Shown here in pieces: positions 1 through 40,631 of a stretch of DNA of 62,454 bases. The first letter of the stretch is position 1, and every line of letters starts with the position of its first letter. Both the position numbers and the translations under genes were made by a program. Under the pieces are notes generated by a model. That model did no database searches and was not told the origin of the DNA. It was given only the letters and a program-made list of their open reading frames with translations. Location: positions 1-62,454 of the forward strand of contig JARLHZ010000030.1 in the NCBI GenBank assembly GCA_031291995.1. Reading direction: 5' to 3'. Source of the DNA: Candidatus Doudnabacteria bacterium (GTDB lineage: Bacteria; Patescibacteriota; Doudnabacteria; UBA920).

Positions 1-4
1 ACCA

Positions 5-286
5 GCCGACAACTATCGGTTTTGTATATTAATTAAGATTTGTATATTCGCGAATACTCGCGAATACTATTGTAAGTAATATACGAAACCGTCCACTGTA
101 AGTTATCTTTTCTATAACGCCATGCCGACAACTATCGGTTTCGTATATTAATTCAGATTTGTATATTAGCGAATACTATCGTTGGTAATATTCGAAACCG
201 TCCACTGTAAGTTATCTTTTCTATAACGCCATGCCGACAACTATCGGTTTTGTATATTAATTAAGATTTGTATATTCGCGAATAGT
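5..286. repeat. Tandem repeat, about 2.4 copies of a 109-119 bp unit (units start at 5, 124, 233) running into the pilD start codon
   Basis: gccgacaactatcggtt...ctataacgccat recurs at 5, 124 and 233. Each unit has an internal inverted repeat (cggttttgtatatt / aatatacgaaaccg). Confidence 0.85.
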
Positions 287-1090
287 ATGACAATGCTACT
301 TTCAGTTTTAATTTTTGTTTTTGGCGCTTGCGTGGGAAGTTTTTTAAATGTCGCGATTTTGCGCCTGCCATTGGGGCAAAAACTTAACGGACGGTCACAC
401 TGTCCGTCCTGCGGCAGGCAGCTTTTTTGGTGGGAACTTTTTCCGCTGGCCAGTTTTGTCCTGCTTGGCGGTAAGTGTTCTTCGTGTAAAATCAAAATAT
501 CATCAAGATATTTTATAATCGAACTTGTCGCGGCGCTGCTGTTTGCCGGAAGTTATTTATATTTAAGTCCGACGGGTTTAGCCGGGTACATAATGCTGGC
601 GAAATATTGGTTCGCCGCCGCGGTAATGATTGTGGTGTTTGTAGTGGATTTGGAACATTATTTAATTTTGGACCGGGTGGTCTTTCCGGCAGTTACCGTT
701 TTGGCTTTGTTTAATTTGGCTTTGGATTTTGTTCAACACCGCAATTTATGGTCGCTGTCCGCCGGCTTTAGCGGCGGACTTGTAGCCGCGGTTTTGGCGG
801 CTTTGCCCTTTTTCCTAATCTGGTATTTTTCAAAGGGTAAGTATATGGGATTTGGGGACATAAAAATGATTTTGCTTATGGGGATAATGCTTGGTTGGCC
901 GGTTGTTTTTGTATCGCTTTTTGTGGCTGTAATTTTAGGCGGCGTGGTGAGCGTATATTTGCTCATGGCGACCAGTAAAACAATGAAAAGCCAGCTGCCT
1001 TTTGGCACATTTTTGAGTTTATCCGCGGTTTTTTGCCTATTTTTTGGGGATAAGTTGCTGCTTTGGTATTTGTCATTTTTGGGGTTTTAG
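287..1090 (+). CDS. pilD: Prepilin peptidase (peptidase A24, PilD-like)
   Basis: N-terminal CPSCGRQL...CSSC zinc-ribbon-like motif followed by a polytopic membrane domain with GFGDIKM, typical of type IV prepilin peptidases. Sits directly upstream of pilin genes. Confidence 0.85.
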   Translation: MTMLLSVLIFVFGACVGSFLNVAILRLPLGQKLNGRSHCPSCGRQLFWWELFPLASFVLLGGKCSSCKIKISSRYFIIELVAALLFAGSYLYLSPTGLAGYIMLAKYWFAAAVMIVVFVVDLEHYLILDRVVFPAVTVLALFNLALDFVQHRNLWSLSAGFSGGLVAAVLAALPFFLIWYFSKGKYMGFGDIKMILLMGIMLGWPVVFVSLFVAVILGGVVSVYLLMATSKTMKSQLPFGTFLSLSAVFCLFFGDKLLLWYLSFLGF

Positions 1091-1107
1091 GGCATAATAA
1101 TAGGGAC

Positions 1108-1189
1108 AGATATTTGTTGATACTGGGATATTAGTTGATATTAATTGTCAGCCAATATCCATAAATATCAATCAATATCCCCAATATCT
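1108..1189. repeat. Intergenic word hairpin built from GATATT / AATATC words
   Basis: 5' arm agatatt..gggatatt..ttgatatt; 3' arm aatatcc..aaatatcaa..aatatcc..aatatct. Shares an exact 19-mer (1127-1145) with 30147-30165. Confidence 0.6.
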
Positions 1190-1211
1190 ATTTTTTAGAT
1201 TTGAAACCAAA

Positions 1212-1934
1212 ATGACAGACCTACAACCTACAAGCTACAAGTTACAAGCTCAACGCGGATTCACTTTGATTGAGCTGATGGTTGTAATTGTTATTATGGC
1301 GCTTTTGGCCAGCGTGCTGGTTTTAAATTTGGCCGGCCAGCGCGCCAAGCGCGACGTGCAAATTGCCGAAAACGAGCTGGTCAGCAACATCAGGCAGATT
1401 CAAAGCGGAACTCTTTCCGCCAAAGCCTTACCCGCGGCGCAGAGTGTGCAGTATTATATGTTGAAGTTTGATTTGGCCAAGCCCGGCCAATATACCATAC
1501 AGGCAGTGTATAATGTAGATACGGCTCCAAAACTGGCCGATATCCAAACCATATATTTGCCGCCCGACGTGGTAATTGCCAGCGCGACTCCCGGAGGGGC
1601 AGCCATATCCATTTCCCGCCAGCAAAATCCGGTTACCCAAATCCTGCCCTCAACTGACGGAAGCTGCGCGTTACTGGCTTATTCCGCTCCGTTCGCCAAG
1701 GTGCTTATGAGCAATACCTGCGTAATAGCCAACCCACCCTTAATTTCCAAGGGCGACGATTATTATTCCATGGTAAATTTTCAGACCAACCAGCTCTGCC
1801 TGGCAAGTGACGATCCCAGCGGTTGCAACCTCAGCGCGGATTCCACTATGACCATAACTTTAACCAATACGGACCATACTTATTTTAAAACAGTAACTGT
1901 AAGCGGCATTACGGGCGCGGTTAACTTTAATTGA
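1212..1934 (+). CDS. Type IV pilin-like protein (prepilin N-terminal cleavage/methylation domain)
   Basis: Class III signal QRG|FTLIELMVVIVIMALLA with Glu at +5. Confidence 0.85.
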   Translation: MTDLQPTSYKLQAQRGFTLIELMVVIVIMALLASVLVLNLAGQRAKRDVQIAENELVSNIRQIQSGTLSAKALPAAQSVQYYMLKFDLAKPGQYTIQAVYNVDTAPKLADIQTIYLPPDVVIASATPGGAAISISRQQNPVTQILPSTDGSCALLAYSAPFAKVLMSNTCVIANPPLISKGDDYYSMVNFQTNQLCLASDDPSGCNLSADSTMTITLTNTDHTYFKTVTVSGITGAVNFN

Positions 1935-1959
1935 ACCGTGGGTATAACCGCAGATATTA

Positions 1960-2040
1960 ACGCGGATCGATGACGCGGATCGATGACGCGGATATTCACG
2001 CGGATATTCACGCGGAAAAATAACGCGGAGCGCGCGCGGA
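1960..2040. repeat. Degenerate direct word array (ACGCGGAT words) between pilin genes
   Basis: acgcggatcgatg x2, acgcggatattc x2, acgcggaaaaata, acgcggagcgcgcgcgga, all in the same orientation. Confidence 0.8.
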
Positions 2041-2047
2041 ACTTCAT

Positions 2048-2860
2048 ATGAAGAATTTTGATTTAAAATTTAATTGGCGGAGAAAATCGGCCGGTTCCCA
2101 AAACGGGCAAACTTTAATTGAAACTATGGCGGCGCTGTTTATTTTGGTTATGGGCATAGCCGCGGCAACCGGTTTGGCGGTTTACGCCTTTGGCGCATCC
2201 ACCAATATTAACAAGCAAATAATCGCCACCGGTCTGGCCCGCGAAAGCCTGGAGGCTGTAAGGAATATGCGCGATACCAATTGGATGAATGACAGTCTGG
2301 TTAGCAACGGATGCTATAACTTCGCTTCTACTCCCATCGGTCAAATTACGTCGCCGTGTTACCAAAACTGGCTGGGACGAACGGGGAGCGCTCCTTTTAA
2401 TTGTATTTTTCCGGATAACAACAGCGGTAACAGTTGCTCCAACAACGGCGCGCCCTCAATGACTTATACTTTAGGAATGGTTGATCCCAGCACTTCAAGC
2501 GGGGTGTTGTGGTATTTGCAAAAACAAAAAACTACCCTTAATTACGGCATGTCTTTTAGCTCCACCACCCCAGTCACCGGGTTTTATACCCAGGACGGGA
2601 ATACCCCTTGCAACGGCAGCGGAGCAACACCCGCCGATTATTGCCGGAAAATAGTTATTACCAACTTTAGCAAGAATAACGGAAACGCAACAGGCCAATA
2701 CAGCCAATACGGGCTTGATGATAACCTGAGCCTGCTAGAAGTGCAATCGATGGTCTGGTGGGTGGATAAAAAATGCCCGCGCGCGGCTGATTTTGCCCAA
2801 GCCAGCCCGACCTGCCGCGTGGAGCTGGACACTTATTTGACTAATTGGAAAGACTTTTAA
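2048..2860 (+). CDS. Minor pilin / pseudopilin-like protein
   Basis: Class III signal NG|QTLIETMAALFILVMGIA with Glu at +5. Cys-rich C-terminal region. Confidence 0.75.
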   Translation: MKNFDLKFNWRRKSAGSQNGQTLIETMAALFILVMGIAAATGLAVYAFGASTNINKQIIATGLARESLEAVRNMRDTNWMNDSLVSNGCYNFASTPIGQITSPCYQNWLGRTGSAPFNCIFPDNNSGNSCSNNGAPSMTYTLGMVDPSTSSGVLWYLQKQKTTLNYGMSFSSTTPVTGFYTQDGNTPCNGSGATPADYCRKIVITNFSKNNGNATGQYSQYGLDDNLSLLEVQSMVWWVDKKCPRAADFAQASPTCRVELDTYLTNWKDF

Positions 2861-2861
2861 A

Positions 2862-2915
2862 CCGCGGATTTACACGCGGATCGATGACGCGGATATAGAC
2901 GCGGATCTAGATGCC
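2862..2915. repeat. 5' arm (ACGCGGAT words) of an inverted word repeat that brackets the GxxExxY ORF
   Basis: ccgcggat-ttac-acgcggatcg-atg-acgcggat-atag-acgcggatc matches the reverse complement of 3317-3368 word for word. Confidence 0.75.
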
Positions 2916-2932
2916 GATATTAACGCCGATCT

Positions 2933-4069
2933 ATGGATGAATTATTGTATAAAGACATAACGTACGATATCAGGGGGGCCTGCTTTTGGGTATGGAAAGA
3001 ATTTAGAGGAGCCTTTAAGGAATCGGTTATTGACAGAGCTTTGACGGTAGAACTGAAAAAGCGGGGCAGAATGGTTGAAGACCAAAAACGGCTTGATATT
3101 GAATATCAGGGCGTGAAGGTCGGTACATACATACCTGATAAAATAATTGATGATTCTGTTTTGGTTGAATTAAAGGCGAAAGAGTTTTTAACATCAGGGG
3201 ACATTGACCAATTTTGGAAATATCTAAAAGGCTCAAAATATAAAGTGGGCTTGTTGATTAATTTTGGTCCGAAGGGTTTGGAAATTAAACGCGTTGTGTA
3301 TGATTCGGCGCGTACCGTCCCCGATCCGCATCATGATCCGCGTAGCCGATCCGCATTAGTATCCGCGGAAAAGGGATTTACCCTAATGGAGATAATGGTG
3401 GCCACGGTCTTGTTTGCCATTGTTTTCAGTTCCATGCTCGGGCTGTTTAATTACGTGCTGAAAATTAACCGGCGCACCGAAGCGCTCAGGCAGGCCTCGC
3501 AGGGAGCGAGGGATTTTGTGGAATTTTTGGCCAAGGAAATCCGCAACGGGCAAATAGATTATTATGTTTCCACCGGCGCATATACCGGGAAGATAAACAG
3601 CAGTTCAAGCGTGCCTTGTGGTCCGGCTGGTAACGTTGGTGACACTGTTAAACCTACTGACTTGCCGACTTACGGATTGGAAGACAATAAGCTTGGAATT
3701 ATTAATACCGACAATGTCCAGGAATGTTTTTATTACGGCAAAGCCGACGGCAGTTATGTAGATACCGTAGGGGGCTTACCAAGCACGTTTGCCTATCCGG
3801 GAGGAACCCTGGTCATACAAAAGAGGGATGTTACCGGCGCGCAGATTTTAAATCCGTCAAATTTCCAAATTAACCAGCTGATGTTTTTAATCCGGCCGGT
3901 TTGCGACCCTCACTCTGCGTCATCATGCACAGCTTATCCGACAGGTTACCCGAAAATCCAGCCGTCCGTGGTAATCCTTATCAATTTTACCGTTAAACTT
4001 CCCACCGGCGAGACCGCCCAGCTTTATTACCAAACTTCGGTGTCTTCAAATAAATATGATATACCGTAG
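2933..4069 (+). CDS. In-frame fusion of a GxxExxY / PDDEXK_3-like domain (aa 1-~125) to a prepilin-like protein (class III signal at aa ~154)
   Basis: N-terminal half has YKDITYDIRGACFWVWKEF...VLVELKAKE...VGLLINFGPKGLEIKRVVYD, the GxxExxY family pattern. It is followed by AEKG|FTLMEIMVATVLFAIVF with Glu at +5. No stop codon lies between the two halves. Confidence 0.7.
   Translation: MDELLYKDITYDIRGACFWVWKEFRGAFKESVIDRALTVELKKRGRMVEDQKRLDIEYQGVKVGTYIPDKIIDDSVLVELKAKEFLTSGDIDQFWKYLKGSKYKVGLLINFGPKGLEIKRVVYDSARTVPDPHHDPRSRSALVSAEKGFTLMEIMVATVLFAIVFSSMLGLFNYVLKINRRTEALRQASQGARDFVEFLAKEIRNGQIDYYVSTGAYTGKINSSSSVPCGPAGNVGDTVKPTDLPTYGLEDNKLGIINTDNVQECFYYGKADGSYVDTVGGLPSTFAYPGGTLVIQKRDVTGAQILNPSNFQINQLMFLIRPVCDPHSASSCTAYPTGYPKIQPSVVILINFTVKLPTGETAQLYYQTSVSSNKYDIP
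3317..3368. repeat. 3' arm (ATCCGCG words) of the inverted word repeat; it encodes the linker of the fusion ORF
   Basis: gtccccgatccgcatcatgatccgcgtagccgatccgcattagtatccgcgg is the reverse complement of the 2862-2915 words. Confidence 0.75.
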
Positions 4070-6266
4070 AATTTTAAATTTTCCCGCCAAAGGCGGGTCC
4101 GCCTTTGGCGGAAAATTACAAATTTTAAATTCCCAGCAGGGTGTGACCATGCTTCTGGCGATTTTGGTGTTGTCGGCGCTGTTGGCAATTAGTTTCAGTT
4201 TGGCGACCGTGTTATTGGTGGAAGTTAAATCTTCCGGCGATTTGACCAGAAGCGAAGCGGCTCTGTATGCGTCTACCGGCGTCAGCGAACAGGCAGCTTT
4301 TAACATTATGAGGCAGGTGCCGTGCACCGGAAATTGCGCTTATATTACCAATTTTTCCAATTACGCCACTCTTAATGGACAGCCAATTATCAGTTCTACT
4401 TCCACGCCGACATTCCAGGATAAAGTCGGCCAGAATTCCAGTTTTACTACGGGTTCAAAAGTTTATAATTTTTGCCCGACCACGCAAATTGGCAATGTCG
4501 GTGGAAATAGCGGATGTGGATACGGGAAAGTCACTTTATCTTATTTACCGACAGGAAATACAAACCCGCTTGATGTTTATTTATGCGAATATGACCCAAC
4601 AATAGACCCGATAGAAAATTATGGCAGCCTTCCATGTTCCGATCCTAATCAGCACATCACATATAATACGCCAAGATCTTATTGGTTGTCCACCGAAAAT
4701 GGCGCACCGTCGGACGGAGCAGGGGGAGTGTATGTATATGCAACCAGCCCCGCAGCTTATACAACCTGGTCCTTAACGCCAGGGTACCAGCAGGAGTTGA
4801 TAGTTTTTGATCCCAGTGAGACAGGGCCGATTTATTATTCGGTTGAAACTTTTGGTGCCGACGGCACAACGCCTTTAGGTTTACCTTATGCGGGGCAGAC
4901 TTCCGTTACTGTTAATTCAAAAAACGGCGACGTGGCCAGGAAACTGCAAGTACTCGTGCCAAATTCCGTAATTATTGCCGGCGGCCCTATTCCGACACCT
5001 ACGCCAACCCCGACTCCGGGGCCAACACCAACACCTACCCCGCCTACAATTCAACCTCCAACTTTTGCCAAAATATTTAGTCCCAGCTCTTCTATAATAT
5101 TGGGCTCACAGACAACGTTGACGTTCACAATAACCAATCCAAACGGTTCTTCCGCCTTAACCGGGTTGAGTTTCACGGATAGCTTTCCCACTGCATTGTC
5201 AGTGGCTAGTCCAAACGGTTTAACAAATACTTGTGGAGGGACTCCCATCATTACTTCCACAAAAATAACTTTTACCGGCGGCAGCGTGGCTGCGTCAGGC
5301 TCCTGTAGTTTGTCGGTAAATGTGGTGGGCACAGATCCTACGGTTGGAGGAGTTACAAATACTACGAACGTCATAACTTACAATGAAGGAACCGGTGGCA
5401 GTACTGCTAGCGCTCTATTTACCGTAAGTAACCCTTCTGTTCCTAGTTTTGCGGGAGCAGGTTTCTCGGGCGGAGTTTTGGCTTCTTCTGGTAATAAAAT
5501 TGAATTATTCAACGGCAGTGGAACACGTGTGTATTCAAGTACGCTTGCCGGGAGACTTCGTGTGGCTTCCGGCATTGGCTTTGGGGGTAGTTTTGGTTTA
5601 GGTTTTATTGCTGACCCCGGTCTGAATCGTTTATTTATGTTCACGCCAGCCGACGGAAATATGTATACTACTAGTTCCTTCGGTTCCTCAGGTACCGGTA
5701 ATGGGCAGTTTATAGCCCCCTCCGGTGTGGCTGGTTTTTCCACAGGTATTTATGTTGTTGATTCCGGTAATAACAGAGTAGAGAAATTTAGCGTGCCAAG
5801 TGGCACCATTGTTTACCAATCACAATTCGGAGGCACTGGTTCAGGAAATGGAAAGTTTAATCATCCTACTGGGATAGTAACAGATAGTACTGGTGCGAAT
5901 GTTTATGTAGTCGATACCGGCAATAACCGAGTGGAGATATTTAATTCATCCGGCGTATTATACCAATCTCAGTTCGGCGGCTCCGGTTCAGGAAACGGAA
6001 AGTTTAATAATCCTACAGGGATTATGATTGGCAACTCCGGTATTTATGTAGTCGATACCGGCAATAACCGAGTGGAGAAATTTAATTCATCCGGCGTATA
6101 CCAATCTCAGTTCGGCGGCTCCGGTTCAGGAAACGGAAAGTTTAATGGCCCTAATGGGATATCAATAGATACGATAGCGCAAAGAATTTATGTTAACGAT
6201 GTTGGTAATAACCGCGTGCAAGTATTTAACTATTCGGGCGTATGGATAGCGAATTTCGGATTATAA
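4056..6266 (+). CDS. Large pilus-associated surface protein: N-terminal PilX-like hydrophobic segment, Pro-Thr linker, beta-sandwich region and a six-repeat NHL beta-propeller
   Basis: QQGVTMLLAILVLSALLAISF; PIPTPTPTPTPGPTPTPTPP; six repeats of GSGNGKFNxPxGI..(I)YVVDTGNNRVEKF. The alternative start is the ATG at 4149. Confidence 0.7.
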   Translation: MIYRRILNFPAKGGSAFGGKLQILNSQQGVTMLLAILVLSALLAISFSLATVLLVEVKSSGDLTRSEAALYASTGVSEQAAFNIMRQVPCTGNCAYITNFSNYATLNGQPIISSTSTPTFQDKVGQNSSFTTGSKVYNFCPTTQIGNVGGNSGCGYGKVTLSYLPTGNTNPLDVYLCEYDPTIDPIENYGSLPCSDPNQHITYNTPRSYWLSTENGAPSDGAGGVYVYATSPAAYTTWSLTPGYQQELIVFDPSETGPIYYSVETFGADGTTPLGLPYAGQTSVTVNSKNGDVARKLQVLVPNSVIIAGGPIPTPTPTPTPGPTPTPTPPTIQPPTFAKIFSPSSSIILGSQTTLTFTITNPNGSSALTGLSFTDSFPTALSVASPNGLTNTCGGTPIITSTKITFTGGSVAASGSCSLSVNVVGTDPTVGGVTNTTNVITYNEGTGGSTASALFTVSNPSVPSFAGAGFSGGVLASSGNKIELFNGSGTRVYSSTLAGRLRVASGIGFGGSFGLGFIADPGLNRLFMFTPADGNMYTTSSFGSSGTGNGQFIAPSGVAGFSTGIYVVDSGNNRVEKFSVPSGTIVYQSQFGGTGSGNGKFNHPTGIVTDSTGANVYVVDTGNNRVEIFNSSGVLYQSQFGGSGSGNGKFNNPTGIMIGNSGIYVVDTGNNRVEKFNSSGVYQSQFGGSGSGNGKFNGPNGISIDTIAQRIYVNDVGNNRVQVFNYSGVWIANFGL
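4070..4131. repeat. 37-nt palindrome flanked by 11-bp direct repeats (aattttaaatt) at a gene junction
   Basis: aattttaaatt|ttcccgccaaaggcgggtccgcctttggcggaaaatt|ac|aattttaaatt, starting right after the TAG at 4067-4069. Confidence 0.7.
5902..6146 (+). repeat. Near-identical 104/107-nt intragenic direct repeats in the NHL region (5902-6008 and 6043-6146)
   Basis: tttatgtagtcgataccggcaataaccgagtggaga.atttaattcatccggcgta...ggaaacggaaagtttaat occurs twice, differing by one substitution and one 3-nt indel. Confidence 0.85.
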
Positions 6267-6299
6267 GTTTTTATCGCCACCCAATAATCGAGACTAAAA

Positions 6300-6324
6300 A
6301 AATCCCTTCAATTTGAAGGGATTT
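6300..6324. terminator. Bidirectional hairpin terminator between convergent genes
   Basis: aaatcccttca-att-tgaagggattt with an A-run upstream and T-rich sequence downstream. Confidence 0.7.
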
Positions 6325-6340
6325 AAATTACGGAAAATTA

Positions 6341-6751
6341 CTAGTTTTGCTGTTTCGGGATGTTCAGGGTTTGGCCGGCTTTTAGGATGAAGGGGCTTTT
6401 GAGGTTGTTTAGGGTGGCGAGGGTGTTCCAGCTAATGTTGTATTTTTGGCTTATATCGAACAGGGTGTCGCCTTTTTGAACGGTGTAGCTGACAAATTGA
6501 ACCTGAGTTTGACCTGCGGCGGGTTGGTTGGAATCACTGGCACCCAAAACTTGCGGATTTTGTCCGTTGTTCGAGGTATGATTTTTACTGCCAATTACCA
6601 GCCGGACGGCGTTGGCCGTTAGTATAACCGCGGCTACCAGGCACAAAATGGCGGCTATTTTTAAAATTTGATTTTGGGTACTGCCCCGGCCGACGCCTAA
6701 GCGCAAGCGGGGAGAGAGCTCAAATTTTTTATTGCCAAAGGCCATAAGCAA
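6341..6751 (-). CDS. LysM domain protein with N-terminal membrane anchor
   Basis: YTVQKGDTLFDISQKYNISWNTLATLNNLKSPFILKAGQTLNIP is a LysM motif. TTG at 6751; first ATG at 6745. Confidence 0.75.
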   Translation of the reverse strand: MLMAFGNKKFELSPRLRLGVGRGSTQNQILKIAAILCLVAAVILTANAVRLVIGSKNHTSNNGQNPQVLGASDSNQPAAGQTQVQFVSYTVQKGDTLFDISQKYNISWNTLATLNNLKSPFILKAGQTLNIPKQQN

Positions 6752-6956
6752 TTATGTCAAAAATTCCCGGGCTGCCGACGAACCGATTTTGTTTCTACAG
6801 ATAAGTCTAATCTACCTTAATTTTAGCATAGTATGGTCAAATTTGTTCTGTGGATAAACCCTATAACGGGTTCAACGGCCGGGAAAATTAATGACAGAGA
6901 ATCCTTACGACATGAGGTTATCAAGATAAACCGAAAATGCTATAATTATAGGGTAA

Positions 6957-9572
<2,616 letters not shown>

Positions 9573-9583
<11 letters not shown>

Positions 9584-9674
9584 TATTTTATCCAAAGAAG
9601 ACCGGGAGGACTTAAACGTGCGCCGCAAAGGCATTTTTGACCGCCGTAACTTTACTCCTTATGACCCGTGTTAA
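9573..9674 (+). pseudogene. Truncated copy of the 5' end of the Kir-like channel gene (33 codons)
   Basis: MANNILSKEDREDLNVRRKGIFDRRNFTPYDPC* parallels QEDLG...NVHRKGVFDRGNFSPYHAV of 11265..12185. Confidence 0.6.
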
Positions 9675-9720
9675 GAGTGTCTTAGCGGCGGTTTGACTTG
9701 GACACTTTGGGTCTCCCGAC

Positions 9721-10040
9721 AAATTTTGGAAGCCTGTTTGGAAGAAACCGGTAATTATAGAGATTATCGGCCCGGCAGTTTCCCAAAGCGCCCATGATTA
9801 TTTCCGGCACAAAGAAAGCTTAAAATTTATTGGCAAAACGTTTGTTATAATGGGAGCTTTAAATTCTATATGCCACAACGAAGCCAAAACTAGAATAAAA
9901 CCCCGCGGCGACAAAATAACGGGAAGCGTGTGCAATCCGACATTATATTTGGCCGTGGGAAAAGAGCCTGGTTCAAAATATGATAAAGCGGTGAAGTTGG
10001 ACATGGAAATTTTGGTAATTTTCAATCGGGTGCAAGTGGC
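9721..10040 (+). pseudogene. Degraded copy of the ligA 3' end (HhH/BRCT region)
   Basis: 9958-10016 matches ligA 8961-9018 with about 3 mismatches. 9721-9900 aligns to ligA 8641-8900 with deletions. ORF 9850..10059 translates ...[20 protein letters not shown]. Confidence 0.8.
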
Positions 10041-10151
10041 GTATAATTTTCGAATTTGATAAGCTTGAGGTCGTGTATTTCCATTCTGTGGGAAACTATG
10101 ACATATATCAGTAGGTCTCTTCTCGCTGCTTAAAGCCGGTTTTAACGCTCC

Positions 10152-11258
10152 ATGCAGGATGAAAATCAAAAATACTCTCGGTTAACCAAAATCCGTTCCT
10201 GGTACGGTAAATACGAACGGTTGATTTCTTCGTGGTCTCTTATTTGCGGATTCGTGTTTGACGCTGTGACTTTAAAGCGCGTGGATTTATTTTGGGAAAA
10301 TTTTTGGGTGATTGCCCACTTAACCATTGTCGGTACGGCCATGGTTTTGGTCCACGCCATAGAAAAAGGCGAAGGGGACGAAACTAACCCTTCCAAACTC
10401 CATTTTTGGCTGGTCAACATTGTCCAGTTCTTTTTTGGGGGGATTCTGTCGACGTATCTGGTTTTCTATTTCCGCAGCGGCGACATTACGGTCACTTGGC
10501 CGTTTTTGCTGATTTTAGCTTTGTGTTTTTGGGCCAACGAAGCTTTAAAGCGGCATTTTGTCAGGCTGGCTTTCCAAATTTCGCTGTTTTTCCTGTCTAT
10601 AATGTGTTTTGCCATTTACTTGGTGCCGGTGTTTGCCCACCAGATTGGACCGGATATTTTTTTGTTGTCCGGCGTATACTCCCTGGTATTCATCGCCTTA
10701 TTCTTATTGGTTATCCGGCTGACTTCCAAGGAGGAGTTTGCTAAAAGCCAAAATATTGTTTATGCCTGCATAGGAGGCATTTTTATTTTGGTCAACACTC
10801 TTTATTTTACGAATCTTATACCGCCGTTGCCGGTATCCATGAAAGAAGCGGGGATTTATTACTCGATTCGTCGCGATAATCGGGGCAATTATCAAGTTAG
10901 CGCCGATAGTAATAACGGTCCGTGGTATGAGCTTTACCCCGATATTCATAAAAAGACCGGCCAGCCGCTTTATGTTTATTCAGCTATTTTTTCTCCTGCC
11001 GATTTTAATATGAATATCGTGCATGAATGGCAGTTTTATGATATTAACGTCAAGCAGTGGGAGACCGAAAGCAAAATTCCGCTTACCGTAATCGGCGGTC
11101 GAGATGGCGGTTTTCGGACTTATTCGGAGAAATTCAATCCTGCAGCCGGGCACTGGAGGGTTAATGTGTTAACAGAAAATGGGCAACTTATCGGCCGCGT
11201 GCGATTTAATGTGGTTTTAGTTGACCAAACCAATCAGATTATGCAATCATTAAATTAA
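10152..11258 (+). CDS. Membrane protein with C-terminal DUF2914-like beta domain
   Basis: Multiple TM segments, then IVHEWQFYD...GGFRTYSEK...GHWRVNVLTENGQLIGRVRFNV, the pattern recalled for DUF2914. Confidence 0.5.
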   Translation: MQDENQKYSRLTKIRSWYGKYERLISSWSLICGFVFDAVTLKRVDLFWENFWVIAHLTIVGTAMVLVHAIEKGEGDETNPSKLHFWLVNIVQFFFGGILSTYLVFYFRSGDITVTWPFLLILALCFWANEALKRHFVRLAFQISLFFLSIMCFAIYLVPVFAHQIGPDIFLLSGVYSLVFIALFLLVIRLTSKEEFAKSQNIVYACIGGIFILVNTLYFTNLIPPLPVSMKEAGIYYSIRRDNRGNYQVSADSNNGPWYELYPDIHKKTGQPLYVYSAIFSPADFNMNIVHEWQFYDINVKQWETESKIPLTVIGGRDGGFRTYSEKFNPAAGHWRVNVLTENGQLIGRVRFNVVLVDQTNQIMQSLN

Positions 11259-11264
11259 TATTTT

Positions 11265-12185
11265 ATGGCCGAAATACCACAACAGGAAGATTTGGGCCTG
11301 GGCGATAAGGTTGTTCAGGAAAACCGCACGCGATTTTTAAATCACGACGGGACTTTTAATGTCCACCGCAAAGGAGTATTTGACCGCGGCAATTTTAGTC
11401 CCTACCACGCGGTGCTTAACGCTTCGTGGTGGAAGTTTAACGTGGGGATGCTTGGCTATTATATAGTGGCTAATTTTATTTTTGCCACTCTTTATATTAT
11501 GGCCGGTAGAAATGCTTTTCCCGATATTGCCGGCATGGATGCGGCGCATCGTTTTGGGCAGGTATTTTTTTACAGTGTGCAGGTAATTACAACGCTGGGT
11601 ACGAGCCCGCTGCATCCGGCTAATACCATGGCCGATGTGGTTCTGGCCATTGAAGCCATGGTGGGAATGATTGGTTTTGCGGTAGCCGCGTCTTTATTAT
11701 TCGCGAGGTTTTCCAATCCGCCTACTAAAATTCAGTTCAGTAAAAATGCTGTTGTTGCTCCCTACCACGGCGACAACGGATTTATGGTCAGGATTGTTAA
11801 CGGGCGCAGTAATGAGCTTATCCATGTAAGCGCGATTGTTACCATGGCCATGACTGACCAAACCGGACGGCGGTCATTTCACCGTCTGGCATTGGAGCGG
11901 GATGAGGTATTTGTATTTCCGCTAAACTGGACCATTGTCCACCCGATTGACGAAAGCAGCCCTTTGCGCGGCCTGTCGGCGGAAAATTTAAAAAACAACA
12001 TGGCCGAATTTTTAGTTTATATTACGGCAATAGATCAGGATCTCTCCAAGACTATTTACGCGAGATCCTCTTACCGAGCCGATGAAGTGCTGGTTGGTTA
12101 TAAATTCAGCAATATTATAGAGCGTGACCAAAAAGGCACCGTGGTTATAGATCCGGCTCGCATTGGGGAAGTGGAAAAAATTTAA
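11265..12185 (+). CDS. Inward-rectifier (KirBac-like) channel homolog with a non-canonical selectivity filter
   Basis: Two TM segments plus a pore helix (FFYSVQVITTLGTSPLHP) and a C-terminal Ig-like domain (FSKNAVVAPYHGDNGFMVRIVNGRSNELI). Confidence 0.7.
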   Translation: MAEIPQQEDLGLGDKVVQENRTRFLNHDGTFNVHRKGVFDRGNFSPYHAVLNASWWKFNVGMLGYYIVANFIFATLYIMAGRNAFPDIAGMDAAHRFGQVFFYSVQVITTLGTSPLHPANTMADVVLAIEAMVGMIGFAVAASLLFARFSNPPTKIQFSKNAVVAPYHGDNGFMVRIVNGRSNELIHVSAIVTMAMTDQTGRRSFHRLALERDEVFVFPLNWTIVHPIDESSPLRGLSAENLKNNMAEFLVYITAIDQDLSKTIYARSSYRADEVLVGYKFSNIIERDQKGTVVIDPARIGEVEKI

Positions 12186-12211
12186 ATTAGTTGGTATAAA
12201 TCATAAATCAT

Positions 12212-12253
12212 AAAACATGAAGCATGAATCAGGATATTAATGCTTCATGTTTT
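12212..12253 (+). terminator. Hairpin terminator after the channel gene
   Basis: aaaacatgaagca (12212-12224) pairs with tgcttcatgtttt (12241-12253). 13 bp, T-rich tail. Confidence 0.6.
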
Positions 12254-12352
12254 ATGCTTCATGTTTCATCTATTGTGAACAAGGTGTGGAATGATAAATA
12301 TAATCCTTATAAATAAGAGGAAAAATATATCAAAATTTTTCCAAATTAAGGC

Positions 12353-12381
12353 TTGACAGCTAACTATAAATGATTTAGAAT
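12353..12381 (+). promoter_or_regulatory. Sigma-70-type promoter, candidate rRNA operon promoter
   Basis: TTGACA (12353-12358), 17-nt spacer, TAGAAT (12376-12381). Confidence 0.5.
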
Positions 12382-12784
12382 AGGTAGACATTAAACATCC
12401 ATAGATATACGGATAGCACTGATTGCACAGATGCTATAAATAAAACTTAGGAAGCAGCGCCTATGTTAAAAACACTTAATTTAGTCAACAAACAGCGGTT
12501 TATGTAAACGGCCATCTTAATATGTGCCTTTACATGCCGCGAAAGCGGTTTTTTTGTACCGCGGATTAACGCGGATCCGCGTGATGTCCGCGTAGTCGAT
12601 CCGCGACAGCTCAGCGGAACAAGCATTATAACCAGTTAAATACTGCTCACAGGTCTCAGCATACCAATTTACTTTGGGTATCAGGCTCGCAGATCCTCTT
12701 GGGGCAGTAGCTATTTGGTTGTTATGCACACAGCAGTCAGTTTAACAGCGAATCAGTAAATCAGCTGATCAGCTAATCAGAAAT

Positions 12785-12814
12785 GTTGCGCTGGCAACCC
12801 AGATCTTTAAAAAC
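12785..12814 (+). promoter_or_regulatory. boxB-like hairpin plus boxA-like antitermination element in the rRNA leader
   Basis: gttgc-gctg-gcaac hairpin followed by atctttaaaaac (compare the boxA consensus GCUCUUUAACAA). Confidence 0.45.
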
Positions 12815-13349
12815 TAAATAGAAATTATCGTTCTTACCAAGTAACGATAATTTTGGGTAGATACATCTTAAGAGATTAAGATGATCATTGTAATAGAATG
12901 CATACAGATGAACACAGATTGAAAGCGGATGGACCCGGATTCGTGTTAATCCGTTATGATTTGTGTAAATTAGTATGCAATAAAAACATTGTATCCAAAC
13001 GTAACAGTAATTTTTGTCATCTTTTGCTTTAACGACAAAAGGTGGTCACAAATTGCTAGTCAAATGATTAAAACAGACAAGGGTATATGGTGGATGCCTA
13101 GGTAATATGAGCCGATGAAGGACGCGACAGCCTGCGATAAGCCTCGGGGAGCTGGCAAATAAGCTTTGATCCGTGGATGTCCGAATGGGGAAACCCACAT
13201 ACTGGAAGAGTATGTGCTGCTATGCCGTGGGGTATAGTATGCGGGAACCGTGCGAAGTGAAACATCTCAGTAGCACGTGGAAAATAAATCAATGCGCCGT
13301 AAGGCGTACGAGATTCCGTTAGTAGTGGCGAGCGAACGCGGATGTATAT

Positions 13350-13439
13350 AATTAGTGAATAGTGAAAAGTGATTAGAGATAAGGATAAGGCAGTTTGTCT
13401 TCTCCTATTCTCTTTTCGCTAAGCACTATTTGCTAAATT
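13350..13439 (+). other. About 90-nt long-hairpin expansion (IVS-like) in 23S domain I
   Basis: Inserted just after the conserved ggcgagcgaac box. Arms are aattagtgaatagtgaaaagtgattagagataaggataagg and cttctcctattctcttttcgctaagcactatttgctaaatt. Confidence 0.7.
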
Positions 13440-13727
13440 ATTAGCCTAAACCTAATTAGTGTTGTTGATATCGCAAGATTGAAACTTAAAGATTACAGTC
13501 GTTGCTAGTTAGGTGTTATAAGCAGGAGTCATTGCCGCTCTGTAAAGCGGCAGGGAATTATGTTTGTTGTTTAGCAGAACACGCCTGGAACGGCGGACCA
13601 AAGAGGGTGATAGTCCCGTATCGCGAAAAACCATGCAATTTCCTGACTTTTTCTTGAGTACGACCAGACACGAGAAATCTGGTCGGAAATCGGGTCGACT
13701 AAGATCCAAGGCTAAATACTCATATTA

Positions 13728-13766
<39 letters not shown>

Positions 13767-13960
13767 CACCCCGGAAGGGGAATGAAATAGTATCTGAAAC
13801 CATATACTTACAAGGAGTGGAAGACCTTACTCCGACGTTACGTCGGAGTGGTTAACCGCGTGCCTATTGAAGAATGATCCAACGAGTTAATCTTATGCGG
13901 CTTGATTAAGTCTTATCAAAGACGAAATCGTAGTGAAAGCGAGGATGAATAGTCCGTAAA

Positions 13961-14055
13961 AGGATAAGAGATTAGTGAAAAGAGATAAGAGATAAGGAGA
14001 GGCGCGCAAGTGTTTTATCCTATTCTCTATTCGCTAAGCACTAATCTCTATTCCT
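13961..14055 (+). other. About 95-nt long-hairpin expansion (IVS-like) in 23S domain II, related to 13350-13439
   Basis: Inserted before the gacccgaaacc box. The 3' arm shares cctattctct.ttcgctaagcacta with the first expansion. Confidence 0.7.
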
Positions 14056-14447
14056 TTATGTCGCATGAGTTAGACCCGAAACCCGCGTGAGCTACGCATG
14101 GCCAGGATGAACGTGGTGTAACAACCACGGGAGGTCCGGACCCACTATTGCTGCAAAAATAGGGGATGAGCTGTGCGTAGGGGAGAAATTCCAATCGAAC
14201 CGGGTGATAGCTGGTTCTCCTCGAAATAGCTTTAGGGCTAGCGTCGAGAGTTCCCTTGAGAGGTAGAGCACTGAATGGAAACCTGCTGCGCAAGCGGTAG
14301 GCTCCAACCAAACTCCGAATTCTCAAGGTCAAGATCTCGGCAGTCAGTCCGTGAGGGCTAAGCTTCACTGGACAAATGGAGAAGAATCCACACCACCGTC
14401 TAAGGCCCCCAAATTCTAGCTATAGTGCAAAGGATGTGGGGTTGCTC

Positions 14448-14484
<37 letters not shown>

Positions 14485-15934
14485 TAAAGAAAGCGTAACA
14501 GCTCACTGGTCAAGCGATCCTGCGCCGACAATATATAGGGGCTAAGCTAGGTGCCGAAGACGTGGATCTCCGACGTTACGTCGGAGGTGGTAGAGGAGTG
14601 TTGTACATGGGTTGAAGCGGTATGCGTAAGCGGCCGTGGACTTTGTACAAGTAAGAATGTTGGAATAAGTAATATATATAGAGGTGAGAATCCTCTTCGC
14701 CGAATATCCAAGGTTTCCAGGGCAACGATCGTCGTCCCTGGGTTAGTCGATCCTAAGAGTGGGCCTCAAGAGGTCCATCCGATGGAAAATATGGTTGATA
14801 TTCCATAACCACTGTAACATTATCTTAGGCGGAACGCATCATGGTAAAACTAGCGTTATCTGACTATTAGCGTTGTTGTATTTGTAGGATGGAACTTCAG
14901 GCAAATCCGGAGTTCCGACATCTGTTATTGCATACCTCGCAAGAGATTGTAGTAACAGGTAAAAGTTCGAGAATACAAAGAAACCTGGCAACGGGGATTA
15001 GTTTGAACCAAGGTGTCAAGAAAAGCGTCGAAGTCAGGTGTTATAGTGCTCGTACCGTAAACCGACACAGGTGGATGGGGAGAGAATCCCAAGGCGTCCG
15101 GAACAATGTTCGTTAAGGAACTCGGCAAAAAAGCAGGTGTACCTTAGGTATATACCTTGACCTTTTTTTGAGATTATATCAAAGAAAAAAGGCCCGCAGC
15201 GAAAGACCTCTCCCGACTGTTTACCAAAAACTTAGGTCCGTGCTAAAGCGCAAGCTGATGTATACGGGCTGATGCCTGGCCAGTGTCAGAAGGTTAAACC
15301 CCTCGTCGCAAGATTGGGGGCCAAGCCCTGATGAACGCCGGCAGTAACTATAACTGTCCTATGGTAGCGAAATTCCTTGTCGCGTAAGTTGCGACCCGCA
15401 CGAATGGCATAACGAGTAGAGGACTGTCTTAACGAACATTCCGATGAATTTACAATGGCGGTAAAGATGCCGTCTACCCGCAGCAAGACGGAAAGACCCT
15501 ATGAAGCTTTACTATAGCGTGTCATTGCAATTTTATTTTTATTGTTTAGCCTAGGTGGGAGACTTTGAAACCCCGACGCCAGTCGGGGTGGAGTCAACAG
15601 GTGAAATACCACCCTGTAGAGATGAAATTGCTAACCAATGCCTAACCTGCATTGGGACAGTGGCTCGTGGGTAGTTTAACTGGGGCGGTTGCCTCCTAAA
15701 TGGTAACGGAGGCGTTTATTAAGGTAGGCTAGGTATGGATGGAAATCATACCGGTAGTGCAAACGCATAAGCCTGCTTGACTGCAAGGGCGGCGACCCGC
15801 GCAGGCACGAAAGTGGAAGTTAGTGATCCGATGCGTTCGAGTGGAAGACGCAAAGCCCAACGGATAAAAGTTACTCTAGGGATAACAGGCTGATCCTCTC
15901 CAAGCGTCCACAGCGACGAGAGGGTTTGGCACCT

Positions 15935-16442
15935 GAACATCATTCGGGGTGCTATGGGAGTGATCCCATACCATGTGTCTTTCATCCGTCTCTCCATGTT
16001 CATAGCATGGAGGATATAATTTTGAAAGAAAATAAATTCGGCTTATAACGGTGGAACCGTAGTTAACTATGTGAGAACTCTTTGTTCTAGTTAACCGGTA
16101 ATACCGTGGGAAGTCTGCGCGAAGCGCAACAATAACTATAATGAATAACAATAACCACTGCAGTTGCAGAAGTTATAGTTATAATTATTGTTATAGTTTG
16201 CCCCCCGCATGACCCCGTAACGACTGACCCGAAAGGGGAGGTTTAAATTAGTGATTAGTGAATAGTGCTTAGTGATTAGTACTGCAGGAATGCAGTTACT
16301 ATCCACTACCCACTAACACTGCCCACTAGTTTAGACAACACGCCGACTCTTGTCACAAAAAAGCAGACTACGGAGACTAATCCTAATGTCGCTGGCAAGA
16401 AGAAGATATAGTCTACACCATACGAAAGTATGGAATTAGGTA
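15935..16442 (+). mobile_element. 508-nt group-I-like intron/insertion in the 23S peptidyl-transferase region (after the U equivalent to E. coli ~U2500); no credible ORF
   Basis: It interrupts the universal ggcaccu|cgaugucgg. Intron gggtgc (15947-15952) can pair with exon gcacct (15929-15934), giving a U.G pair at the splice site. There is a GAAA-capped hairpin ccatac-gaaa-gtatgg near the 3' end. Confidence 0.55.
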
Positions 16443-16472
16443 CGATGTCGGCTCATCACATCCTGGGGGTGT

Positions 16473-16509
<37 letters not shown>

Positions 16510-17095
16510 TGGTACGCGAGCTGGGTTCAAAACGTCGTGAGACAGTTTGGTCCTTATCTGCTGTGGGTGTACGAAACTTGAGTAGTCGCATCTCTAGTAC
16601 GAGAGGACCGAGATGCATAGACCTCTGGTGTACCCGTTGTCCTGTCAAGGGCATGGCGGGGTAGCTAGGTCTAGTTAGGATAAGCGCTGAAGGCATATAA
16701 GCGTGAAGCCGTCTACAAAACTAGGTTTCGTTGTTCTAATTTATTAGAACGAAAGGTTCGGGGAAGACTACCCCGTACAACAATCGAAAGTTTTTTGGCG
16801 AAGTAGCAATATGGATCCAAAAGAAAATAGATTTATAGGCTGCAGGTGTAAGCACAGTAATGTGTTCAGCCGAGCAGTACTAATCAACCAAAAGTTTTAA
16901 TTTTCTTTGACTAGCAATTTGTGCATAGAGCGAAGCCCCGCCAAGCGGGGCGTAGCACCTTATTATTCTCCCCCTGCGGGGGGAGATGTCACGCGGAGCG
17001 TGACAGAGAGGGTGCAAGCAAGATACGATGTTTAACAACTTACAATGTTCACAAAGTGCGCCCTTTTAAATTTCCAATAAGTTGGACATTTAAAA

Positions 17096-17206
17096 GGGTG
17101 GCATTTCCAGCCGGGCTCGACCTGATCCCATCCCGAACTCAGTAGTCAAAACGGCTTGGGCCAATGATAGTCCTACGCATGTAGGTGCAAAAGTAGGTGG
17201 CTGCCC
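17096..17206 (+). rRNA. rrf: 5S rRNA
   Basis: cccatcccgaactcagtagtcaaaac core. Terminal helix gggtggc / gctgccc. Confidence 0.85.
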
Positions 17207-17218
17207 CATTTATCAATC

Positions 17219-40542: not shown

Positions 40543-40631
40543 GGCGGAAGCGGAGGGATTTGAACCCTCGAGGGCTGTAACACCCTGCCGCCTTTCCAAG
40601 GCGGTGCACTAGACCACTATGCGACGCTTCC
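40542..40631 (-). tRNA. tRNA-Ser (anticodon GGA), CCA encoded
   Basis: Acceptor GGAAGCG/CGCUUCC, anticodon stem CCGCC/GGCGG with loop UUGGAAA, long variable arm, T arm GAGGG-UUCAAAU-CCCUC. Confidence 0.9.

Follow-up and report, generated by a model that had tools for sequence, protein, structure and literature searches.

A probable group I intron ending in adenosine in the peptidyl-transferase centre of a Doudnabacteria 23S rRNA gene

Introduction

The 3'-terminal guanosine of group I introns, omega-G, is a defining catalytic element of these ribozymes and is taught as universal and required; in model ribozymes, its mutation to A severely impairs exon ligation. The published natural exceptions that can be traced are few, namely Cbu.L1917 and ND5-717. 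[quoted passage not shown] The latter, found in hexacoral mitochondria, also carries a terminal A in place of omega-G and is on record as ligating its exons, with the exactness of ligation shown by RNA (PMC6545197, PMC8146996). [quoted passage not shown] That survey describes ORF-less and LAGLIDADG-containing forms at the same sites, recognized by the Rfam model that was also used here, whereas splice-site nucleotides and the identity of omega are not reported in it.

Here, we analyze an insert in the 23S rRNA gene of a Candidatus Doudnabacteria genome, located in a 62,454-nt stretch of DNA that is referred to in its entirety as the window. Like Cbu.L1917, the insert is a bacterial 23S rRNA group I intron without the canonical omega-G. 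It differs from this intron in its position (L2500 instead of L1917), in its IA-like architecture, as opposed to the IB2 subgroup reported for Cbu.L1917, and in its membership in a set of 58 distinct A-ending introns at its site, from records labelled as several phyla instead of a single lineage. As in both Cbu.L1917 and ND5-717, an essential gene contains a ribozyme that is intact except for a terminal A at the position of omega. ND5-717, however, resides in a mitochondrial protein gene, carries a giant, gene-containing insert in P8, is inherited strictly vertically and is partly back-spliced, and its exact ligation is an RNA-level result, whereas ligation is deduced for the intron studied here (PMC8146996, PMC6545197). 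With the introns of the CPR survey, the insert shares its host group and the region of the gene.

The locus thus represents an exception that is rare but has been documented before, with both CPR 23S introns and introns lacking omega-G being known. A literature search for L2500 introns or 'omegaA' found no paper. What sets this case apart is that a large group of introns is fixed for the exception and resides in the one, essential 23S rRNA gene of its hosts, among them many CPR bacteria as well as records with a Planctomycetota label, and that the exception coincides with an unchanged guanosine pocket and a strictly kept P9.0 clamp.

Results and discussion

Position of the insert and gene context

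The Rfam bacterial LSU model matches the window over positions 13067-16903 with a score of 2250 bits, and a 5S gene lies downstream. In a local search, the match is broken exactly at GGCACCU(15934) | CGAUGUC(16443), with the second exon restarting as CGAUGUCGG, in agreement with the first-pass annotation, which had placed the split after U2500. The insert spans positions 15935-16442 (508 nt) of the forward strand, on which all intron elements described below are located. With a G as its first and an A as its last base, it can be placed in only this way if the canonical exon sequence is to be restored. Exon 2 begins with C16443, which corresponds to nt 2502 of an E. coli 23S rRNA gene annotated at 2906 nt; we take it to be C2501 in standard numbering, on the basis that A2503 is the A of CGAUGUC, and the last base of exon 1, U15934, is then U2500. 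The insertion site, U2500|C2501, is part of the peptidyl-transferase core. The host genome (1.49 Mb in 39 contigs, 94% complete) contains only this one LSU gene.

As previously noted, the insert lacks a homing-endonuclease ORF: there was no Pfam match among the ORFs in or over it, and the longest wholly internal ORF comprises 56 aa. The Rfam group I intron model RF00028 aligned to positions 15973-16434 with 33.1 bits (E = 1.2e-6), which is below its gathering score of 50; its consensus contains neither large peripheral inserts nor P7.1 and P7.2. The proposed group I identity is nevertheless borne out by this match together with the covariation described below. Introns of this kind will be misplaced or missed by annotation pipelines in which a terminal G is required or Rfam's threshold is applied.

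Several features of the surrounding region are recorded here as side observations. The 23S rRNA gene measures 3837 nt, compared with 2925 positions in the model, and approximately 400 extra bases besides the 508-nt intron are located in expansion segments, including a 149-nt insert near model position 280. Upstream of the 23S-5S pair, the Rfam search detected no 16S gene and no spacer tRNA within positions 1-17209 of the window, and its only matches in the whole window are the LSU, the 5S and one tRNA (40545-40631).

Fold and covariation

The fold was evaluated in an alignment of 54 A-ending introns, in which the helices were written from the window sequence and the pairs were then counted. 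Standard pairs occupy 94.2% of the 4015 cells, compared with 36-43% when the partners were slid by one to three columns. Changes on both sides are seen in 49 of the 80 pairs, and the observed values were not reached in any of 500 shuffles. Compensatory changes occur in P2, P2.1, P3, P5, P6, P7.1, P7.2, P8 and P9. P1 and P10 contribute no covariation evidence, because neither of them varies.

At the 5' splice site, the exon strand GCACCU (15929-15934) forms six base pairs with the internal guide GGGUGC (15947-15952), including the wobble pair U15934.G15947 directly at the cleavage site. This P1 helix is as first described and invariant in 54/54 sequences. The likewise previously described pairing of 15944-15946 with 16443-16445 is part of a P10 helix in which the guide at 15943-15946 (UUCG here, AUCG in most relatives) faces the first four bases of exon 2, CGAU (16443-16446), and it is paired in 99.5% of cells among the 54 sequences. 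P2 (15954-15969) is a hairpin with a GUGA loop and shows compensatory changes in all six of its pairs. In P2.1 (15978-16029), which consists of an outer stem (15978-84/16023-29) and an inner hairpin (15991-16013), 13 of 15 pairs are compensatory, with the outer stem aligning less well (70% paired).

The conserved core from P3 to P9, including the P3/P7 pseudoknot, is present, within a full core that spans P1 to P10. The two strands of P3 (16038-16042 and GCCGA at 16342-16346) are paired in 100% of cases, with compensatory changes in three pairs. The Rfam alignment and the pair counts define P4 (16048-53/16102-07) and P5 (16057-67/16090-98), which together with a terminal hairpin occupy positions 16048-16107. 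P6 (16108-16216; 16108-09 and 16113-15 with 16211-13 and 16215-16) carries a long extension on a base that is 100% paired and shows compensatory changes. The 5' strand of P7 (16220-16226) is followed by P7.1 (16228-16237, CCC-GAAA-GGG), with compensatory changes in 3/3 pairs, and by P7.2 (16241-16336), whose six basal pairs are all compensatory. P8 (16349-16399; 16349-55 with 16393-99, plus an inner hairpin) shows such changes in six of seven pairs, and the adjoining segment at 16400-16414, comprising J8/7 (AAGAAGAUA) and the 3' strand of P7 (UAGUCU), is nearly invariant across homologues. In P9, finally, five of six pairs are compensatory. Its GAAA-capped hairpin, CCAUAC-GAAA-GUAUGG, had been recognized in the first-pass annotation, which assigned it to 16419-16434; it actually lies one position upstream, at 16418-16433.

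The resulting helix order is P7 - P7.1 - P7.2 - P3' - P8 - P7'. The presence of P7.1 and P7.2 between P7 and P3' is a mark of subgroup IA, and with covariation supporting both helices the architecture of the intron appears IA-like. The guanosine-binding pair, G16222-C16413, is located beside the bulged C16221 and is G-C in 54/54 sequences. We looked for a compensating change in this pair in the same alignment and found none, which rules out an altered nucleoside pocket with an A-U pair in P7.

Judged by these patterns, the only 23S rRNA gene of the genome harbours an intact, selectively maintained group I core. It could be argued that the insert is instead an intron that has lost its function and is decaying in a dead rRNA gene, or the product of a mis-assembly, and the lack of an ORF, the two repeat-built insertions and the sub-threshold Rfam score would fit such a scenario. 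However, the gene is the only LSU gene and matches the LSU model with the score of 2250 bits given above, and the same intron recurs in 28 related genomes and has evolved by compensatory change, which makes this explanation barely credible.

The terminal A and the 3' splice site

The insert ends in A16442 instead of the omega-G that defines group I introns. BLAST searches in the genus, family and order of the window's host showed that 28 genomes have a homologous insert at this junction; three of the inserts are cut by contig ends, and one is interrupted by an assembly gap. These homologues are 352-555 nt long and ORF-less, and 28/28 end in ...GUA before CGAUG, so that the terminal A reported in the first-pass annotation is not the result of a sequencing error at 16441-16442. 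Relatives from the order without the insert have the canonical uninterrupted sequence GGCACCUCGAUGUCGGCU. In the closest relative (L010/L043 of genome G001), the homologous intron is broken by NN, which stands for either an assembly gap or withheld bases, and its apparent length of 351 nt is not real.

The bases preceding the terminal A take part in P9.0, in which AC (16415-16416) pairs with U16441 and G16440 of the 3' strand GU (16440-16441). This helix is formed in all 54 sequences (100% paired); one of its pairs is G.U in 33, A-U in 20 and G-C in one of them, and the other is C-G in 50 and U-A in four. A16442, the omega nucleotide, directly follows the 3' strand and is an A in 28/28 order relatives and in at least 38 introns found in the wider scan described below. 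At the other side of the junction, P10 (AUCG/CGAU in most relatives, UUCG here) adjoins P1 with zero gap. As read from these pairings, P9.0 and P10 both place A16442 at the canonical omega position.

The register of the junction could in principle be different, with G16440 acting as omega or with the A belonging to the exon, in which case the mature rRNA would contain one or two bases more than the canonical GGCACCUCGAUGUC. In line with this idea, most members of the group have a G at position -3, and a second 23S copy in a Planctomycetota genome carries an extra A between U2500 and C2501. Position -3, however, covaries with J7/9, and it is an A in five of the 58 A-ending introns included in the tree, whose three final bases contain no G; thus, no nearby G serves as omega in these cases. 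Moreover, the register of P10 puts the junction before C16443, intron-less relatives of the same order carry the canonical sequence, and a canonical copy exists beside the aberrant one in the Planctomycetota genome, where the extra A may have arisen in assembly. We therefore regard a splice site elsewhere as extremely unlikely. Shifted boundaries that provide an omega-G were rejected, since they do not restore the exon sequence and conflict with the behaviour of position -3.

Related introns that end in G offer a point of comparison. In relatives without the L2500 intron, sister introns are found at L2593 and L2656 (L017:880-1656; L019:508-793, 848-1733), which end in ...CGUG|A or ...CACG|G. 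Although they occupy other sites and have a terminal G, their core resembles that of the L2500 intron: the segments P6'-P7-P7.1 and J8/7-P7' are almost the same, as is the layout of P9 and P9.0. Given this near-identity, the core pocket is not visibly adapted to A. The L2656 sister introns, inserted in the sarcin-ricin loop, contain ORFs whose length suggests putative homing endonucleases.

The first-pass annotation had considered the terminal A, the missing endonuclease and the two word-built hairpins as three anomalies that called for a variant mechanism or for retention of the insert. This view is not supported, as the A is fixed in a large conserved group, where it takes the canonical omega position. 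The missing endonuclease is ordinary, with four A-ending relatives in fact carrying LAGLIDADG_2 ORFs, and the hairpins represent optional extensions of P6 and P7.2 that are absent from most relatives.

Proposed splicing route

Taken together, the insert is most likely an IA-like group I intron at U2500|C2501 that belongs to a large A-ending (omega A) group and would be spliced with the help of exogenous guanosine. In this process, the guanosine cofactor, seated in the unaltered pocket of P7, would cleave the precursor after U15934, and the freed 3'-OH of U2500 would then attack the phosphate after A16442, producing the canonical GGCACCU-CGAUGUC junction. P9.0 and P10, and not base-specific binding of omega, would be the main determinants of the 3' splice site. 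Consistent with this notion, the terminal A is held in a clamp formed by the two base pairs of P9.0 and the three to four base pairs of P10, next to a guanosine pocket with its canonical G-C pair. The second step may be slower than in the presence of omega-G, or it may be aided by a protein.

Due to its location at U2500|C2501, an insert that is not removed would disrupt the peptidyl-transferase centre. Retention of the unspliced intron in mature 23S rRNA nevertheless has a precedent in Simkania, for which Everett et al. reportedly described in 1999 a group I intron that stays unspliced in the 23S rRNA, and the loss of omega-G is expected to hamper exon ligation. Here, though, the affected site lies in the peptidyl-transferase core of the only 23S gene, and the catalytic core, P9.0 and P10 have been kept by compensatory changes in dozens of species, which an inert insert would not need. 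Retention is thus quite improbable.

Alternatively, the intron could be limited to cleavage, with guanosine attacking the 5' splice site and the 3' end being released by hydrolysis or a nuclease, leaving a 23S rRNA in two pieces, as is the case for intervening sequences processed by RNase III. The terminal A should weaken ligation, which would favour such an outcome. However, strict conservation is seen in P10 and P9.0, the two helices that serve ligation of the exons, and we know of no precedent for a nick inside the peptidyl-transferase centre. Fragmented 23S rRNAs do work elsewhere, being functional in several bacteria according to the introduction of the CPR survey (PMC11270868), but a terminal A is thought to suppress, and not to favour, hydrolysis at the 3' splice site (PMC8146996). 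Cleavage without ligation is, on balance, very unlikely. The group offers many natural sequences, some of them only ~300 nt long, for testing the second splicing step without omega-G.

Distribution and phylogeny of introns at the same site

To place the intron in a wider context, the genomes of 185,579 species were scanned for a base other than T before CGATGTCGGCTCRTCRCATCC, a pattern that leaves U-ending introns outside its reach. Among the 120 matches listed, the preceding base is A in 41, G in 78 and C in one. Introns of the same type account for 38 of the 41 A cases listed, 36 of them being full-length. The A-ending carriers listed include records labelled Saccharibacteria, Paceibacteria, Kerfeld-, Magasanik-, Peregrini-, Berkel- and Daviesbacteria as well as Planctomycetota records with contigs of up to 3.2 Mb. 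Some of the carriers listed are MAGs nominally assigned to 'Gammaproteobacteria'. Pfam searches identified LAGLIDADG_2 ORFs (E about 1e-40) in at least four A-ending relatives, indicating present or past mobility of the A-ending group.

A quick maximum-likelihood tree was calculated from 120 distinct introns at this site (58 A-ending and 62 G-ending), with the omega base excluded. The best tree requires eight changes of the omega state, but a tree in which all A-ending rows are grouped together is equally likely (AU p = 0.49). As the AU test leaves room for one clade of all A-ending introns, we do not claim repeated switching from G to A; one old origin of the A-ending group is compatible with the tree. 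P9.0 directly abuts omega in 57/58 A-ending introns, compared with 28/62 G-ending introns, a contrast that comprises few independent pairs, and the association between A and a tight P9.0 may be the trait of a single clade.

It is tempting to speculate, as a tentative generalization, that the A-ending L2500 introns form one old and mobile group present in multiple phyla, whose members perform both splicing steps with an unchanged pocket and with P9.0 and P10 as the sole determinants of the 3' site. If so, an entire family of natural introns would manage without omega-G and would provide a natural system to study substrate recognition in the second step.

Two further observations concern 23S sequences at this junction. 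The Planctomycetota genome mentioned above (6.8 Mb) has two 23S copies, one canonical and the other with one additional A precisely at the U2500|C2501 boundary (L092:2535-2560, = L180; L179), which could reflect an assembly error, a variant copy or the scar of an imprecise loss of an A-ending intron. A Cloacimonadota record (L123), in turn, reads GGCACCA-CGAUG, an apparent U2500A substitution in its 23S rRNA.

Peripheral hairpins built from heptamer words

The two word-built hairpins, at 16128-16198 and 16245-16332, both fold as originally stated, forming long imperfect stems with CUGCA...UGCAG tips. The first lies within the extension of P6, and the second, capped by GGAA, corresponds to a lengthened P7.2. 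In an alignment of 24 species of the order, a long P6 arm is present in roughly a third and a long P7.2 in about a quarter, with the remaining relatives having short hairpins at these spots. The arms consist of tandem heptamer words, TAGTGAN in this genome and different words in other species. The hairpins are lineage-specific, peripheral and dispensable expansions of the insertion-tolerant P6 and P7.2 loops.

A census of the genome for hairpins with CTGCA...TGCAG tips, based on ungapped extension of the arms, which is broken by bulges, returned no cases. Arrays of the same words are found on at least four other contigs of the genome, one of them as a hairpin. They are tandem arrays of TAGTGAA/T and TAGTGCT, words that also build the P7.2 arm, and are located at C11:14440-14600, C24:12289-12319, C19:61547-61577 and C23:10724-10747; the C11 array forms a long hairpin, and those on C24 and C19 look one-armed.
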